A stretch of 64,000 nucleotides of DNA from a virus, in IMG/VR virus record IMGVR_UViG_3300027782_006229, positions 20,842-84,841 of that record. The stretch is one strand, 5' to 3'. The notes under the pieces were generated by a model. The model did not search any database and was not told where the DNA came from. It worked only from the letters and a program-made list of their open reading frames with translations. Positions 19,946 through 39,559 of this stretch are shown here, in pieces (positions within the stretch are counted from its first letter, which is position 1; each line of letters opens with the position of its first letter). Made by a program: the position numbers and the translations under genes.

Positions 19946-21145
19946 CTAATTCCATTTCTTCAAGTATTTTCTTTCAGGTGAATTATATGGTGTAGTATAT
20001 GCTTCATAAATACACCCAATATTTTCTTGCTTTTCAAGAATGCGTTGTTCACCAACCTGTCTCATCTCCATAGACATCTTACGATATTTTGGTTTATTTT
20101 TAAGAGTGGCTGCAATAAGTTCTTTAAGTTGCTCACCTGTTTTAAATTTGAGTGGTGCATCCTTATATGTGACCATATCTTGACAGATAACTGGTATACC
20201 AAATAGACATGCTTCAATAAATTTAATATCTGATTTGGATCTGTTGAAATGGTTATCTTGCAACGGAGCAATCATCAAATTAATATCTAGTTCAAAAATT
20301 TTCTTTGGATATTGATAAAGGGTCTGCCATGGGTGGAATTCAATCTCACCAGATTCAATATATGGCTTCAAAGGTGGTGGGAATGAACCCATAAACACCC
20401 ATTGATATTTTGTTCTTGTATCAATAACTGCTTTGATTACATGTTCAAAGTCATCTTTACCACCTACTTTATTATCTACATCATAATGTGCACCTGATCC
20501 TGTATATAGAATGCGTGGTTTTTTGTGGTTTTTATCTAGTGAATTACAAACCTTTGAATGGTTGAAGAAATAACCCATCCAGAAAAATGGAGGGAAGTTA
20601 GGAATGACTGTAATTTCTTGTTTACCTGTCTTCTCCCTATACAAATCTCTCATGTAATCACATGTTACAGTAACTTCATCAGCCATGTTAATAATATCAA
20701 TGCAGTTTTGTCTTACTTCATCATTATCAAAAGCAAATTTAAACTTATTATAATCTGGAATATCTTCTCTGAAAACTACATCATCAACTTCGTAAATAAT
20801 TTTAAAACCACACTGCTTTTGAATTGATTTTAGGTATTCAATAAATCGTTTTTGATCTGTTGTAGCTTGTCTTTGAATTTTAATTGCTGTAACACCTTCA
20901 TACCACTTTGGTTCAAATACCATACAAGTATTAGATTGTGAAATCATCGCACCATTACCGTTTAAAATTTGTTCTGGCCAAATAACCCTCCAGTGACCAC
21001 AACCACTATAATCAGCAAGATAATTGATAACACGTGGTAAAGAAAGTTCACGTGGTGCTATATTTTCCCTCGGTGGTGTGGGTGGTTGAGCTAATTTAGC
21101 ACCTTGAACTGGAATAAATGGTGATACAAACGGTGATGGAAACAT
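19946..21145 (-). CDS. GT-B fold glycosyltransferase
   Basis: GCGHWR, YEVDD and APLQDNHFNRSKSDIKFIE motifs. Confidence 0.8.
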   Translation of the reverse strand: MFPSPFVSPFIPVQGAKLAQPPTPPRENIAPRELSLPRVINYLADYSGCGHWRVIWPEQILNGNGAMISQSNTCMVFEPKWYEGVTAIKIQRQATTDQKRFIEYLKSIQKQCGFKIIYEVDDVVFREDIPDYNKFKFAFDNDEVRQNCIDIINMADEVTVTCDYMRDLYREKTGKQEITVIPNFPPFFWMGYFFNHSKVCNSLDKNHKKPRILYTGSGAHYDVDNKVGGKDDFEHVIKAVIDTRTKYQWVFMGSFPPPLKPYIESGEIEFHPWQTLYQYPKKIFELDINLMIAPLQDNHFNRSKSDIKFIEACLFGIPVICQDMVTYKDAPLKFKTGEQLKELIAATLKNKPKYRKMSMEMRQVGEQRILEKQENIGCIYEAYTTPYNSPERKYLKKWN

Positions 21146-32613: not shown

Positions 32614-32709
32614 TGGTACTCCAGGCCGGGATCGAACCGACAACCGCGGCCTAATCTGGGCCATACGAAAGGTATAAGCTTTCCGCTCTGCCAATTGAGC
32701 TACTGGAGT
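32614..32709 (-). tRNA. tRNA-Ile(UAU) with long variable arm
   Basis: ACTCCAG acceptor, GAAAG-CTTATAC-CTTTC anticodon arm, about 25-nt variable region, TTCGATC T-loop, ACCA. Confidence 0.85.
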
Positions 32710-35801: not shown

Positions 35802-35878
35802 TGGTACCCTGAGTCGGATTCGAACCGACAACACACGGATCTTAAATCCGATGCATCTACCAATTGTGCTACCAGGGC
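35802..35878 (-). tRNA. tRNA-Leu(UAA), short variable loop
   Basis: Cloverleaf, anticodon loop TTTAAGA, ACCA. Confidence 0.85.
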
Positions 35879-35886
35879 ATTGAAAG

Positions 35887-35961
35887 TGGTTCTCTTGGAT
35901 GGTAATGCTCCATCTTAGATCGCTTCACAGGCGATGACATTACTTTTATGATACGAAGAGA
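35887..35961 (-). tRNA. tRNA-His(GUG), non-canonical
   Basis: ATCGC-CTGTGAA-GCGAT; T-loop AGCATTA; irregular acceptor; CCA. Confidence 0.7.
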
Positions 35962-35970
35962 TTTTGAAAG

Positions 35971-36045
35971 TGGTACCTGGTGCGGGAATCGAACCCACAT
36001 AAAGGCTTTAGAAGAGCCTTGTCCTATCCGTTGAACGAACCAGGC
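35971..36045 (-). tRNA. tRNA-Arg(UCU)
   Basis: AGGCT-CTTCTAA-AGCCT, CCA. Confidence 0.92.
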
Positions 36046-36053
36046 ATTTAAAT

Positions 36054-36128
36054 TGGAGCGCAATCAGGGAATCAAACCCTGCTAAGCGATTTTGCAGACC
36101 GCCACCTACATCAGCTGGCTCATTGCGC
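36054..36128 (-). tRNA. tRNA-Cys(GCA)
   Basis: Anticodon loop CTGCAAA, U73, CCA. Confidence 0.85.
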
Positions 36129-36142
36129 ATTTGAAAATTGTT

Positions 36143-36285
36143 GACACTCTATTGAGTAGCTAATTCAACGAGTGCCTCAGAAACCATTCAATGAGCTTGT
36201 GCAAGCGCACCCAGTCAGACGTGAATCTGAACAGCCAAAGTGCCAGGAACAGCAACGAAACTGACAGTTAGTTGAATATTTCTGA
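36143..36285 (-). ncRNA. unassigned structured RNA candidate B
   Basis: 14-bp helix TCAGAAATATTCAA/TTGAATG-G-TTTCTGA plus internal and 3' hairpins; no ORF. Confidence 0.6.
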
Positions 36286-36290
36286 ATATC

Positions 36291-36484
36291 GATAGCCGGT
36301 GAGGTATCCAAGAGTATCTGGTCTATCTACAGATCCCTCTCTGCCCATTCTCCGTTTGTAATATACACTTCATAATGCTTCCGTCCAGTATTATCATACT
36401 TTGCATTGCAATGCATTTCAGGTCTTACCCGGCCCCTCACATTATTTTCTCATTACACGCAACCTGCGTCTTTCCTTACTATCA
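36291..36484 (-). ncRNA. unassigned multi-hairpin RNA candidate A
   Basis: Closing GATAGT/GCTATC, GTGAGG/CCTCAC and at least five hairpins; no convincing ORF. Confidence 0.65.
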
Positions 36485-36488
36485 AAAT

Positions 36489-36563
36489 TGGTGGAGCGTA
36501 AGGGATTCGAACCCTTTCTTCAACCGTGCAAGGATCATGTGCTACCATTATCACTAACGCCCC
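36489..36563 (-). tRNA. tRNA-Ala(UGC)
   Basis: G3:U70, anticodon loop CTTGCAC, CCA. Confidence 0.92.
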
Positions 36564-36569
36564 ATAAAA

Positions 36570-36644
36570 TGGTACCCGAAGTAGGATTCAAACCTACAAC
36601 AATCCGCGTGTAAGGCGGGCGCTCTATCGTTGAGCTATTCGGGC
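36570..36644 (-). tRNA. tRNA-Val(UAC)
   Basis: Anticodon loop CTTACAC, CCA. Confidence 0.9.
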
Positions 36645-36651
36645 AATTTAC

Positions 36652-36849
36652 CTACTCTGAAACTTTTGTCTCTTTACGAGCATTTTTCTCTGCTGTAATT
36701 TCATTACGACGAGCTTTAGCTAGTACGATAATCTCTTGTAGACGCTTTCGTGCGTTTGTACTTGCAGATGATTTACCGTTGATGAATTTTTCATCATCAA
36801 TTGCAAAAGCTTCAGTTAGTTCTTTAAGTTGGTCATATGTTTTTGTCAT
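36652..36849 (-). CDS. histone H1-like (Hc1 family) small protein
   Basis: KF..G.SSASTNARKRLQEI..LAKARR.EI pattern; own early promoter at 36855-36882. Confidence 0.7.
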   Translation of the reverse strand: MTKTYDQLKELTEAFAIDDEKFINGKSSASTNARKRLQEIIVLAKARRNEITAEKNARKETKVSE

Positions 36850-36891
36850 ACTTTATTATAATATCTTTCCTATCTGAATCAACTATTAAAT

Positions 36892-36966
36892 TGGCTCCCC
36901 AGGTACGGTTCGAACGTACGACATGACGGTTAACAGCCGTCCGCTCTACCACTGAGCTACTGGGGA
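36892..36966 (-). tRNA. tRNA-Asn(GUU)
   Basis: Anticodon loop CTGTTAA, G73, CCA. Confidence 0.93.
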
Positions 36967-37304
36967 TTTTTATCTGCAACAATATATATTCTGTCTAATT
37001 GTTGTTCAACTAAAATTTTGTTTAAATCTTCTCTGTATATTTTACACAATGCAAAAACTCTATCGAGCATTCTATTTGCATTGGTAATCATCTTATGTGA
37101 CTCAAAGCTGTAGATGCAATCATGAACTCGATGCATTCTAATACACCCAAATTCAGTTGCCTCGTTATCGAGTTTTTCAAAAAGTTCTTCAATTGATTTA
37201 ATATGACCCCAATCTAGAGAATAAGGAATTCCTGTAAACTTACACTGATGCTCAACTATCTCTTTGATTTTACTTTTATTGATAACGAAGATTGGTTGTT
37301 TCAT
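36957..37304 (-). CDS. hypothetical protein within tRNA array
   Basis: 115-aa ORF between tRNAs; stop lies inside tRNA-Asn. Confidence 0.55.
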   Translation of the reverse strand: MKQPIFVINKSKIKEIVEHQCKFTGIPYSLDWGHIKSIEELFEKLDNEATEFGCIRMHRVHDCIYSFESHKMITNANRMLDRVFALCKIYREDLNKILVEQQLDRIYIVADKNPQ

Positions 37305-37309
37305 AAAAT

Positions 37310-37383
37310 TGGATGCAGGTCGGGAATCGCACCGCGCTCTATGGGTTATGAGCCCAGAATGGTCACTAGACCACTTACCTGCA
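37310..37383 (-). tRNA. tRNA-Met(CAU), initiator-like and non-canonical
   Basis: GGG-CTCATAA-CCC anticodon stem; T-loop TGCGATT; CCA. Confidence 0.75.
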
Positions 37384-37392
37384 ATTTGAAAT

Positions 37393-37470
37393 TGGCAGAG
37401 CTGATGGGTGCTGCCCCCACTCTATATCTCGCTCGACAGGCGAGTGTCAATGCTGTTTGACTTCAGCTCT
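37393..37470 (-). tRNA. tRNA-Asp(GUC), non-canonical elbow
   Basis: Anticodon loop CTGTCGA, G73; T-loop GGCAGCA. Confidence 0.8.
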
Positions 37471-37479
37471 ATTTGAAAT

Positions 37480-37556
37480 TGGTAACGGCGACGGGGATCG
37501 AACCCGCGGTCTTCACGTTGAAAGCGTGACGATTTAACCAACTAATCTACACCGTC
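37480..37556 (-). tRNA. tRNA-Glu(UUC)
   Basis: Anticodon loop CTTTCAA, CCA. Confidence 0.92.
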
Positions 37557-37602
37557 ATTTAAATTAATTACTCTTTTATTATAACTTATTTCCTTTTGAA
37601 AT

Positions 37603-37679
37603 TGGTCATCCCAGAGGTAGTTGCAACCTCACCATACCGGATTAAAAGTCCGGTGCCGGTCTACTGTGGCTTTAGGATG
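37603..37679 (-). tRNA. tRNA-Lys(UUU), non-canonical elbow
   Basis: Anticodon loop CTTTTAA; T-loop TGCAACT. Confidence 0.8.
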
Positions 37680-37688
37680 TTTTGAAAT

Positions 37689-37762
37689 TGGTGCCTCTAG
37701 CTGGAATCGAACCAGCGTTTATCGCGTATGAAACGATCATTCTACCATTGAATTATAGAGGC
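37689..37762 (-). tRNA. tRNA-Met or tRNA-Ile2 (CAU)
   Basis: Anticodon loop TTCATAC, CCA. Confidence 0.85.
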
Positions 37763-37771
37763 TTTTGAAAT

Positions 37772-37846
37772 TGGCAGCTCCCCCAAGACTCGAACTTGGA
37801 CTAAAAGATTCAAAATCTTCTGTGCTAACCATTACACTAAGGAGCC
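37772..37846 (-). tRNA. tRNA-Gln(UUG)
   Basis: Anticodon loop TTTTGAA, CCA. Confidence 0.85.
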
Positions 37847-37855
37847 ATTTGAAAT

Positions 37856-37932
37856 TGGTACCCGTAGAGGGATTCGAACCCCCAACATTATGATCCTAAA
37901 TCATATGCATCTACCAGTTGTGCTATACGGGC
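37856..37932 (-). tRNA. tRNA-Leu(UAG), short variable loop
   Basis: TATGA-TTTAGGA-TCATA, CCA. Confidence 0.88.
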
Positions 37933-37941
37933 ATTTGAAAT

Positions 37942-38018
37942 TGGTACTCTCGGAGGTAGTTGCAACCTCATCATATCCGGTTAAGAGCCGGGTGCCGATC
38001 TACTGTAGCATCGAGAGT
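37942..38018 (-). tRNA. tRNA-Lys(CUU), non-canonical elbow
   Basis: Anticodon loop CTCTTAA; T-loop TGCAACT. Confidence 0.8.
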
Positions 38019-38026
38019 ATTTGAAA

Positions 38027-38101
38027 TGGTGGCGCATCAGGCTTTTCACCCTTCCTCTGGCACCAGTGTGGCCAGCGTGCTTTACCTTACACTATTGCGC
38101 G
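38027..38101 (-). tRNA. tRNA-like RNA of undetermined identity (9-nt anticodon loop)
   Basis: D arm GTGT/GCAC, CTGGC-CACACTGGT-GCCAG, aberrant T arm, ACCA end. Confidence 0.6.
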
Positions 38102-38105
38102 GAAA

Positions 38106-38180
38106 TGGTACCTCATAGAAGATTCGAACTCCTACTTTTTCGTTCGTAGCGAAACGTGCTTTCCATTACACTAACGAGGC
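38106..38180 (-). tRNA. tRNA-Arg(ACG)
   Basis: Anticodon loop CTACGAA, CCA. Confidence 0.9.
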
Positions 38181-38188
38181 ATTTAAAA

Positions 38189-38264
38189 TGGCACCCGGTG
38201 TGGGAATCGAACCCACCCACTCAGATTTGGAGTCTAAGTCGCCAGCCTTGGAACATTACCGGAT
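38189..38264 (-). tRNA. tRNA-Trp(CCA)
   Basis: Anticodon loop CTCCAAA, G73, CCA. Confidence 0.88.
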
Positions 38265-38270
38265 ATAAAT

Positions 38271-38344
38271 TGGTCCTTCTGGCAGGAATTGAACCTGCGT
38301 CGCTGCCTTATCAAGACAGAGCTAAACCACTCAGCTACAGAAGG
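38271..38344 (-). tRNA. tRNA-Ile(GAU)
   Basis: Anticodon loop TTGATAA, CCA. Confidence 0.85.
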
Positions 38345-38352
38345 TTTGAAAT

Positions 38353-38427
38353 TTGCACCCCTAGTTGGATTTGCACCAACGTCTATGGTTTATCGGTCCA
38401 TTGCTAAAGCTGCTCAGCTACAGGGGC
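38353..38427 (-). tRNA. tRNA-Ile(GAU)-like, non-canonical, no encoded CCA
   Basis: Anticodon loop CCGATAA; T-loop TGCAAAT; ends in GCAA. Confidence 0.6.
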
Positions 38428-38435
38428 ATTTGAAA

Positions 38436-38515
38436 TTGTAGGATGGTTGCGAGGTTTTACCCGAAACGCCTCACCATCAGTCTTTCGGCCACACACTAGC
38501 ATTGCTGCTCTACAA
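38436..38515 (-). ncRNA. unassigned junction RNA candidate C
   Basis: TTGTAG/CTACAA closing helix, AGCA-GCAA-TGCT hairpin, GAAA-capped stem, GATGG..GAGG/CCTC..CCATC. Confidence 0.55.
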
Positions 38516-38518
38516 AAA

Positions 38519-38612
38519 TGGAGGAGAGCTGCGGTCCTGCCCCGCACACCTCTTTTTAGGAAGTGCGTGATGTTTAGCAAACATCCCTAGCGCCTTGTCT
38601 AGTTAACTCTCC
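38519..38612 (-). tRNA. tRNA-Ser(GCU), non-canonical T loop
   Basis: Anticodon loop TTGCTAA, long variable arm, T-loop GGCAGGA. Confidence 0.8.
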
Positions 38613-38703
38613 ATATGGGCCGGTCTTTGGTAAGTTTTCGCTATGCGAAGGTTTCTTTCTAAGTGCCTTTTTATCGGGTATGCTCCGGGCCGATCTTATA
38701 AAC

Positions 38704-38780
38704 TGGTCAGGATAGCGAGATTTGAACTCGCGCTTCTAGATCCCAAATCTAGTGTGCTACCAGGCTACAACTATATCCTG
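38704..38780 (-). tRNA. tRNA-Pro(UGG)
   Basis: Anticodon loop TTTGGGA, C1:G72, CCA. Confidence 0.9.
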
Positions 38781-38791
38781 TTGAAAATTAA

Positions 38792-38883
38792 TTAGGCTGA
38801 TGTGCTTATTCCGCTATCTATGCATCAATAATCAATATCTGGCTCCCACACACATCATAAATGGCCATTGACCTGCCGCCTAA
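38792..38883 (-). ncRNA. unassigned structured RNA candidate E
   Basis: TTAGGC/GCCTAA and TGATGTG/CACATCA helices. Confidence 0.45.
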
Positions 38884-38885
38884 AT

Positions 38886-38962
38886 TGGTCAGGATAGTTG
38901 GATTCGAACCAACGACCACTCACTTCCAAGGCGAGTGCGCTACCAGACTGCGCTATATCCTG
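38886..38962 (-). tRNA. tRNA-Pro(UGG), second copy
   Basis: Anticodon loop CTTGGAA, CCA. Confidence 0.92.
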
Positions 38963-38969
38963 TTGAAAT

Positions 38970-39044
38970 TGGTGCGGTGTGAGGGAATCGAACCCTCTCC
39001 TTCTGATTGGAAGTCAGGTGTGCAGCCATTAACATTTACACCGC
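38970..39044 (-). tRNA. tRNA-Gly(UCC)
   Basis: Anticodon loop CTTCCAA, CCA. Confidence 0.9.
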
Positions 39045-39053
39045 TTTTGAAAT

Positions 39054-39137
39054 TGGAGCTGGATGTGAGATTCGAACTCACGAAGCTATCGCAATGGTTT
39101 ACAAAACCATCCCCTTTGGCCACTTGGGTAATCCAGC
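39054..39137 (-). tRNA. tRNA-Thr(UGU) with extended variable arm
   Basis: ATGGT-TTTGTAA-ACCAT; 12-nt variable region; Tyr-like D arm. Confidence 0.82.
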
Positions 39138-39145
39138 ATAAAAAT

Positions 39146-39219
39146 TGGAGCGTTATATGGGATTCGAGCCCATTCAATAACCTTGGCAAGGTCATATGCA
39201 GCCATCACATCCATAACGC
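39146..39219 (-). tRNA. tRNA-Gly(GCC)
   Basis: Anticodon loop TTGCCAA, U73, CCA. Confidence 0.88.
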
Positions 39220-39220
39220 A

Positions 39221-39312
39221 TGGAGGAAGAAGTGAGATTCGAACTCACGGAGGTTTTTAGGCCTCAACGCATTTCAAGTGCGCCGCCTTAAACCAGGCTC
39301 AGCCATTCTTCC
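39221..39312 (-). tRNA. tRNA-Ser(UGA)
   Basis: Anticodon loop CTTGAAA, long variable arm, CCA. Confidence 0.9.
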
Positions 39313-39318
39313 ATAAAT

Positions 39319-39385
39319 TGGACGGTGTTTTCTTTTACTTCAGATCACCGAAAGTCTGAACTTCAGAGGTCGGGTAGAAGCCGAC
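39319..39385 (-). ncRNA. pseudoknotted RNA candidate F ending in CCA
   Basis: GTCGG/CCGAC hairpin; TTCAGA/TCTGAA stem whose loop CGGTG pairs with 3' CACCG-TCCA. Confidence 0.55.
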
Positions 39386-39390
39386 ATAAA

Positions 39391-39478
39391 TGGTGGGGTA
39401 GGTTGGATTCGAACCAACTCAGCCGCAGAGGCTACAGATTTACAGTCTGTCCTGACTCTCCAACTTCAGCGCTACCCC
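39391..39478 (-). tRNA. tRNA-Tyr(GUA)
   Basis: Anticodon loop CTGTAAA, variable arm, CCA. Confidence 0.92.
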
Positions 39479-39483
39479 ATAAA

Positions 39484-39559
39484 TGGTCCCTGTGTAAGGA
39501 ATCGAACCTTACCGTCTCACTCTTCAGGCGAGCGCAATCTCCAGATTTGCTTCACAGGG
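39484..39559 (-). tRNA. tRNA-Phe(GAA)
   Basis: Anticodon loop CTGAAGA, CCA. Confidence 0.88.

Follow-up and report, generated by a model that had tools for sequence, protein, structure and literature searches.

A 64,000-nucleotide (nt) stretch of viral DNA, positions 20,842 to 84,841 of the IMG/VR virus record IMGVR_UViG_3300027782_006229 and referred to in its entirety as the window, carries a 201-nt insert between the tRNA-Ala and tRNA-Cys genes of a dense transfer RNA (tRNA) array. The insert is a real, discrete, non-coding unit enriched in guanine plus cytosine (GC) and placed on the same strand as the tRNAs. It is tentatively read as an accessory non-coding RNA cassette of the tRNA operon, an assignment whose probability is put somewhat short of an even chance. 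The features that define the slot, in order of transcription and numbered from the first letter of the window, are as follows.

36489..36563, minus strand, tRNA-Ala(UGC) with encoded CCA, directly upstream of the insert (ARAGORN; Rfam tRNA, 49.5 bits)
36284..36484, minus strand, 201-nt non-coding insert (alignment with relatives)
36129..36285, minus strand, conserved ~155-nt structured RNA element, directly downstream of the insert (five-genome alignment, RNAalifold)
36054..36128, minus strand, tRNA-Cys(GCA), downstream limit of the variable slot (ARAGORN; Rfam tRNA, 37.3 bits)

Borders, coding capacity and composition of the insert

The insert is housed in the 360-nt gap between tRNA-Ala(UGC) and tRNA-Cys, where it starts 4 nt past the encoded CCA of tRNA-Ala, behind an ATTT spacer, and reaches as far as the conserved RNA element of ~155 nt that lies before tRNA-Cys. 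A first-pass annotation made from the letters of the window had proposed an RNA candidate at 36291-36484 beginning right after the tRNA-Ala CCA; these coordinates nearly equal the insertion delimited by comparison with relatives (36284-36484), and the 4-nt distance agrees with the proposed start. The same annotation described the segment as non-coding and richer in GC than the coding background, and both descriptions hold. The longest minus-strand frame in the stretch is 41 codons, stop to stop, and five of the six substitutions located in this frame alter a residue, with one destroying the GTG start (worked by hand). The GC content of the insert is 42.8% compared with 32.4% for coding DNA, 18-35% for the other gene-free stretches outside the array and 44-59% for the tRNAs, and the base counts (A 69, G 57, T 46, C 29) describe a purine-rich sequence. 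A decayed protein gene was considered and rejected after a six-frame tblastn search against 94 loci and the masked window, in which the best E was 0.077 apart from the copies in L002, the related contig described below.

Occurrence among relatives and the variable slot

The conserved ~155-nt element is found in six other IMG/VR contigs, one with the insert, four without it and one (L099) cut off, beginning inside the element. Two of the six genomes that can be judged carry the insert, namely the window and L002, with the second copy at L002 4366-4566 showing 5 differences in 201 nt. In L003 and L004 the tRNA-Ala-CCA-ATTT sequence runs straight into CAGAA..., the start of the conserved element, and L005 has the same coordinates. 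The tRNA-Ala/tRNA-Cys spacer measures 360, 837, 157, 159, 159 and 1305 nt in six contigs. At the same junction, contig L082 has a different insertion of ~1.2 kilobases (kb) that carries, at L082 2423-3557, a Cys-rich open reading frame (ORF), the C-terminal part of which matches PHROG endonuclease families (E = 1.8e-8), and a second ORF of 98 amino acids. L002 has a PGDYG-family ORF (L002 4726-5190) between the conserved element and tRNA-Cys, and the sequencing runs X2 and X4 contain contigs with still other sequences right after tRNA-Ala, which are loose ends. The tRNA-Ala/tRNA-Cys slot is an insertion hot spot, because the genomes carry the insert, an endonuclease-like ORF or a PGDYG ORF there, and the insert is one optional occupant.

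Searches for more distant copies return the same pair of sequences. The 360-nt spacer has no blastn match in 50,697 phage records, and two exact 19-mers of the insert locate a true copy within IMG/VR only in the L002/L083 contig; three further IMG/VR contigs with a 19-mer share just 19-21 nt, contain no tRNAs and were set aside as chance matches. One 19-mer gives two matches of only 19-22 nt in JGI metagenome contigs, and two exact patterns give 0 matches in 185,579 species genomes. Among 49 related whole virus records there is one true copy (the L002 contig), together with seven records having 14-18-nt matches (E = 0.009-0.2). Only the window and the L002 contig are recovered by nhmmer in 102 loci plus the window, and likewise by a covariance model of the insert (R1) in 84 sources (654 kb). 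IMG/VR scans for the conserved neighbour element and for the tRNA-Ala 3' end reveal no further carriers of the insert.

Comparison with known RNA families is similarly empty. At gathering thresholds Rfam identifies only tRNAs in the whole window, and at E<=10 on 4 kb a single overlap appears, a permuted-tmRNA match (E = 8.8) that rests on tRNA-Ala. Rfam 15 at E<=10 on 381 nt gives 0 matches, with GOLLD, ROOL, Polynucleobacter-1, group I introns, small ribozymes, tmRNA and Y-RNA-like RNAs among the families covered; the earlier statement that the segment could not be matched to GOLLD or ROOL is borne out by this covariance-model search, in which no family is found even at E<=10. Neither ARAGORN nor the Rfam tRNA model RF00005 detects a tRNA-like unit in the insert, and a CCA end and a T-arm-like hairpin are not seen.

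A miniature inverted-repeat mobile element was also considered and rejected. The insert has a single copy in its own 84.8-kb record, is present in 1 of the 49 related records and in the same slot, and its inverted ends are merely 5-7 base pairs (bp) with no border or target-site duplication seen.

Sequence variation

The gene below served as the anchor for gathering relatives (312 in IMG/VR, of which 80 loci were retained) and to gauge the neutral rate of change.

36652..36849, minus strand, 65-amino acid Hc1 (chlamydial histone H1-like) gene, inside the tRNA array and upstream of tRNA-Val and tRNA-Ala (Pfam PF07432, E = 2.3e-10)

The window and L002 share one collinear block, 36284-36899. Within the Hc1 gene the two differ at 6 of 43.7 synonymous and 0 of 151 non-synonymous sites, leaving the protein 100% identical, and in the 163 nt comprising tRNA-Val, tRNA-Ala and their spacers only one site differs, between the two tRNAs. 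The insert (5/201) has changed ~5-fold more slowly than the Hc1 synonymous sites (6/43.7; Fisher p = 0.0055), and this slow change suggests purifying selection.

The slot occurs in public runs X1-X17, which span 14 studies; runs with small shares (X18-X23) do not enter the comparison. Four haplotypes of the insert are available, those of the window and L002 plus X4 and X6 (DNA, public runs). Their identity is at least 97%, the 201 nt contain 8 variable sites, and X6 has at least 4 differences inside the insert. The variable sites are listed with the base change on the minus strand, the haplotypes concerned and the position relative to the helices of the first-pass annotation.

36463, G>A, all three others, hairpin loop
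36439, U>A, all three others, U-A pair of GUGAGG/CCUCAC broken
36429, G>A, all three others, G-C pair of GGGU/ACCU broken
36445, A>G, X4 and X6, A-U to G-U in AUAAUG/CAUUAU
36373, A>G, X4, U-A to U-G in AUAAUG/CAUUAU
36334, A>G, L002, A-U to G-U in AUCUG/CAGAU
36343, C>U, X4, outside the annotated helices
36309, G>C, L002, outside the annotated helices

The U in GUGAGG and the G in GGGU are private to the window, and those two helices are therefore intact only there. The transitions that keep a wobble pair carry no weight. All 8 variable sites are unpaired or pair-keeping in the RNAalifold consensus, a weak observation given that two of the haplotypes went into that consensus. In haplotype X4 an L002-like insert sits beside a window-like central hairpin of the neighbouring element (36214-36266).

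Predicted secondary structure

Every complementary word pair listed in the first-pass annotation is present on the minus strand at its given place, but the architecture assembled from them, two closing helices and six hairpins, is predicted to be no better than that of random sequence and is unstable between near-identical copies. An elaborate multi-hairpin fold of the insert is thus not supported by the folding calculations. The annotated model has an energy of -36.4 kcal/mol, compared with a true minimum of -46.5 and a shuffle mean of -38.6 kcal/mol, and adding the suggested long-range ATAATG/CATTAT pair worsens it to -20.8 kcal/mol. The GTGAGG/CCTCAC closing helix has a pair probability of 0.13 and is mismatched in the other three haplotypes, as is the GGGT/ACCT hairpin, which does not fold on its own; nor does the TGTA/TACA hairpin, with a pair probability of 0.07. 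The second closing helix, GATAGT/GCTATC, fares better, being predicted in both copies with a probability of ~1.00 in a fold of the insert by itself, although a terminal helix of equal quality is formed in 10% of 3000 shuffles. The terminal helix and three local hairpins are listed here.

36478..36484, minus strand, terminal helix closing the insert, 5' strand UGAUAGU (pairs with 36290-36296)
36290..36296, minus strand, terminal helix, 3' strand GCUAUCG (pairs with 36478-36484)
36457..36469, minus strand, hairpin ACGCA-GGU-UGCGU, the most robust local hairpin (-3.7 kcal/mol, z = -3.3; pair probability 0.65-0.99 in both copies)
36402..36415, minus strand, perfect 14-nt palindrome UGCAUUGCAAUGCA, a 5-bp hairpin with a 4-nt loop (-2.8 kcal/mol)
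36387..36400, minus strand, hairpin AGUAU-GAUA-AUACU (-2.1 kcal/mol; pair probability 0.84-0.89 in the window copy and 0.58-0.62 in L002)

The sole variable site in the ACGCA-GGU-UGCGU hairpin (36463) falls in the loop. The palindrome has no other copy in the window at <=2 mismatches, and 37 of 100 window shuffles give at least one such match. In a test picked after the hairpins had been seen, and so post hoc, perfect hairpins of at least 5 bp number 4 in the insert against 0.95 expected (reached by 3.9% of 2000 shuffles), and three of these have 3-4-nt loops where 0.28 would be expected (0.25% of the 2000 shuffles do as well).

RNA libraries, promoter-like and terminator-like sites

Contigs 100% identical to the window that span the border between the insert and the ~155-nt element occur in two lake-water metatranscriptome runs, each from a different study. 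They cover 36055-36428 (X2) and 36244-36470 (X3), i.e. most of the insert, which is probably transcribed. As assembled contigs these data show presence, not ends or abundance, and the contig depths of ~9.5-9.9 over the insert and ~4.7 over tRNA-Val/tRNA-Ala are not comparable and were given no weight. Joints corresponding to a spliced form are absent from the two RNA and two DNA runs, in which contigs can miss rare forms; the unspliced insert in the RNA contigs fits co-transcription and argues against an intron. None of the RNA contigs bridges the tRNA-Ala/insert border, with X2 ending at 36428, X3 ending at 36470 and separate contigs starting at 36485 and 36466, a gap that may reflect an assembly break from co-occurring variants and from which no RNA end is deduced.

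Upstream of the Hc1 gene there is a promoter-like sequence, TTGATT-16-TATAAT (36882-36855). Promoter-like sites are not more frequent in the region than in shuffles (14 compared with 9.4 +/- 2.6), and no terminator-like site is present on the minus strand from the Hc1 gene to tRNA-Cys.

The conserved ~155-nt neighbour

The element directly downstream is a better-supported structured RNA than the insert. It is kept in all five aligned genomes, and in RNAalifold 8 of its 46 pairs show compensatory double changes across the five sequences, whereas the insert is present in two of six genomes and has no compensatory change. Examples are the exchange among AGAGGU/ACCUCU, AAAGGU/ACCUUU and AGAGGC/GCCUCU and a U-A to C-G replacement in the 3' hairpin. 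The element has no Rfam match. In place of the element's central hairpin the window has an unrelated sequence, with 53% identity to L002 over 62 nt. The insert and the element share strand and slot, have near-equal GC contents (42.8 and 41.9%) and are contiguous, possibly on one transcript. The closing helix of the element begins where the insert ends, and thus there is no spacer between them.

Genomic context

The source of the window is an 84.8-kb IMG/VR virus record estimated by CheckV to be ~40% complete. The large genes match T4-type replication and head proteins, among them a DNA polymerase (E = 1e-197), an SbcC-like gp46, helicases and a portal protein, and the phage is an uncultured freshwater T4-like virus. 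The array occupies 35802-39559 on the minus strand with 22 tRNAs detected by ARAGORN, a 23rd tRNA lies at 32614, and all 23 share the strand of the insert. Elsewhere in the array, the 92-nt gap between tRNA-Arg and tRNA-Leu (35879-35970, minus strand) resembles a tRNA-His with an anticodon loop CUGUGAA, a CCA end and an unusual T-loop, a unit that escapes both ARAGORN and the Rfam tRNA model.

Discussion

If the insert is an accessory RNA cassette, a minus-strand transcript would include it along with Hc1, tRNA-Val, tRNA-Ala, the ~155-nt RNA and tRNA-Cys, and the 5' end of its RNA would be made as tRNA-Ala is freed by a cut in the AUUU spacer. As the two ends of the insert are predicted to pair (UGAUAGU/GCUAUCG), it may form a purine-rich domain of its own, loose in structure apart from a few short hairpins, that leaves its neighbours undisturbed. 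With no spacer to the ~155-nt RNA, the product would most likely be a 5' add-on domain of that RNA (~356 nt in total) or a separate ~200-nt RNA. Such a cassette would be dispensable and swapped among phages by recombination at the conserved flanks. A more far-reaching version is unlikely, in which T4-like freshwater phages move a self-closing plug-in RNA domain into and out of their tRNA arrays through recombination at conserved tRNA flanks. The fused ~356-nt product would then be a two-domain RNA, and its extra domain would work in trans, perhaps by sequestering a host RNA or an RNA-binding defence protein as a sponge or decoy.

The closest known parallels are rnaC (139 nt) and rnaD (119 nt) of phage T4, which in the T4 annotation are, like the insert, non-tRNA sequences on the tRNA strand separated from a tRNA by a spacer of a few nt. 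They are placed right after tRNA-Arg in the T4 tRNA cluster and are dispensable accessories of that cluster, as the insert appears to be. In a noticeable difference, rnaC has a T-arm-like GGTTCGAATCC hairpin near its 3' end and rnaD has an ACCA end, whereas the insert has neither. RNAs C and D are also proven stable transcripts, whereas the insert is known from sequence and from RNA-library contigs. The covariance model of the insert (R1) has no match in the T4 region (L097), a search run in that direction only. According to Uzan & Miller 2010 (PMC3014915), the roles of T4 RNAs C and D are unknown after decades.

Several other systems invite comparison. GOLLD and ROOL are several-fold larger than the 201-nt insert. 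Like the insert, both are located in or beside phage tRNA arrays, as described in a recent study (Nature 2025, PMC12286853). In addition to having no Rfam match to either, the insert has no signs of an ornate, well-determined fold. The Polynucleobacter-1 RNA (RF01718), known from freshwater phages, is located ~450 nt downstream of Hc1-like homologues in 2 of 18 related loci, as listed.

L030 4648-4782, Polynucleobacter-1 RNA, 111 bits
L020 4640-4773, Polynucleobacter-1 RNA, 80.5 bits

A non-coding RNA behind an Hc1-like gene is therefore a recurring theme. In L030 the sequence between the Hc1-like gene and the RNA holds a small nuclease-like ORF of 142 amino acids, not tRNAs, and the Polynucleobacter-1 model matches neither the window nor the 381-nt slot, even at E<=10. 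The E. coli 3'ETS-leuZ RNA sponge is a functional spacer of a bacterial tRNA operon. By pure analogy, the insert might likewise be a piece of a tRNA precursor that is freed by processing and possibly acts in trans.

A number of observations weigh against the insert being a working RNA cassette. The minimum free energy of the 194-nt segment is unexceptional (z = -1.28, with 22 of 200 shuffles folding as well), as are those of the 360-nt spacer (z = -0.52) and of the L002 copy (z = -0.66, 48 of 200 shuffles as good), and the predicted structures disagree between the two 97.6%-identical copies, where 5 differences suffice to pull hairpin probabilities down from 0.9 to 0.2, or from 0.7 to 0.0. A compensatory double change is seen in none of the 55 predicted pairs across the four haplotypes, which at 97% identity or more are too alike for covariation to weigh either way, and no homologue below 97% identity is found in any of the databases scanned. 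The insert is absent from four of the five judgeable relatives and is therefore dispensable for the phage group. Low divergence could stem from recent cassette exchange and not from selection, and the combination found in haplotype X4 implies recombination within ~20 nt of the 3' border of the insert. Unlike T4 RNAs C and D, the insert does not have a tRNA-like 3' part that would explain processing. RNA libraries may contain DNA, and as this carry-over was uncontrolled the contigs are not proof of transcription.

These points lend themselves to a simpler account, doubtful but to be taken seriously, in which the insert is a neutral passenger, that is, recently acquired foreign or rearranged DNA in a recombination hot spot that is transcribed inside the operon, trimmed as a long spacer and without function. 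The tRNA-Ala/tRNA-Cys slot is hypervariable (spacers of 157-1305 nt) and hosts the endonuclease-like ORF of L082, the PGDYG ORF of L002 and the unlike sequences in X2 and X4, the insert itself is missing from most judgeable relatives (4/5), and there is neither a global fold signal nor covariation. Furthermore, the two changes private to the window create the very pairs noted in the first-pass annotation. A passenger would not be expected to keep a GC content 10 points above coding and gene-free DNA, so there has been no drift to the local composition, and the divergence 5-fold below nearby synonymous sites and the enrichment of short hairpins also speak for more than inert filler; exact-word scans of phage records, IMG/VR, JGI metagenomes and 185,579 species genomes do not find a source sequence. 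Decay of a former cassette, either one or two eroded tRNA genes or the non-coding part of a free-standing endonuclease cassette as in L082, is quite unlikely. The tRNA model at E<=10 (381 nt) and ARAGORN give no match, there is no CCA end or T-arm-like hairpin, the insert has no DNA or six-frame similarity to the L082 insertion or to any of the 94 loci, and slow divergence is unlike that of a decaying relic. In favour of decay are a GC content between those of tRNAs and background, a length of about two tRNAs plus spacers and the presence of an endonuclease-like gene at the same junction in L082.

A role at the level of DNA, as a protein-binding site, promoter or endonuclease target, is very unlikely. 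It could draw on the perfect 14-bp palindrome at 36402-36415 and on two weak sigma-70-like matches (9/12) on the minus strand inside the insert, but promoter-like sites are not above the shuffled level (14 against 9.4 +/- 2.6), the palindrome does not recur in the window while 37 of 100 shuffles yield at least one such match, and 200 nt far exceeds the need of such a site. Introns and ribozymes are known from phage tRNA regions, and a precise insertion bounded by a helix joining both ends would suit a small group I-like intron or self-cleaving ribozyme that leaves the tRNA precursor. A catalytic or self-splicing RNA of this kind is nevertheless highly improbable, as no Rfam 15 ribozyme or intron family matches at E<=10 on 381 nt, the RNA contigs carry the insert unspliced with no joint in four runs, and the insert interrupts no gene.

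The accessory RNA cassette remains the tentative choice, and the insert, for which the hints of function are modest, is regarded as a new orphan member of the loosely defined non-tRNA RNAs of phage tRNA clusters. As things stand, the finding mainly documents the tRNA-Ala/tRNA-Cys slot as a hot spot in this phage group. If the insert is a working RNA, it would add a new case to the 50-year-old puzzle of non-tRNA RNAs in T4-type tRNA clusters, and would present such RNAs as interchangeable cassettes located next to a conserved partner RNA that covaries. The plug-in domain, if true, would turn phage tRNA arrays into modular carriers of accessory regulatory RNAs as well as of tRNAs.

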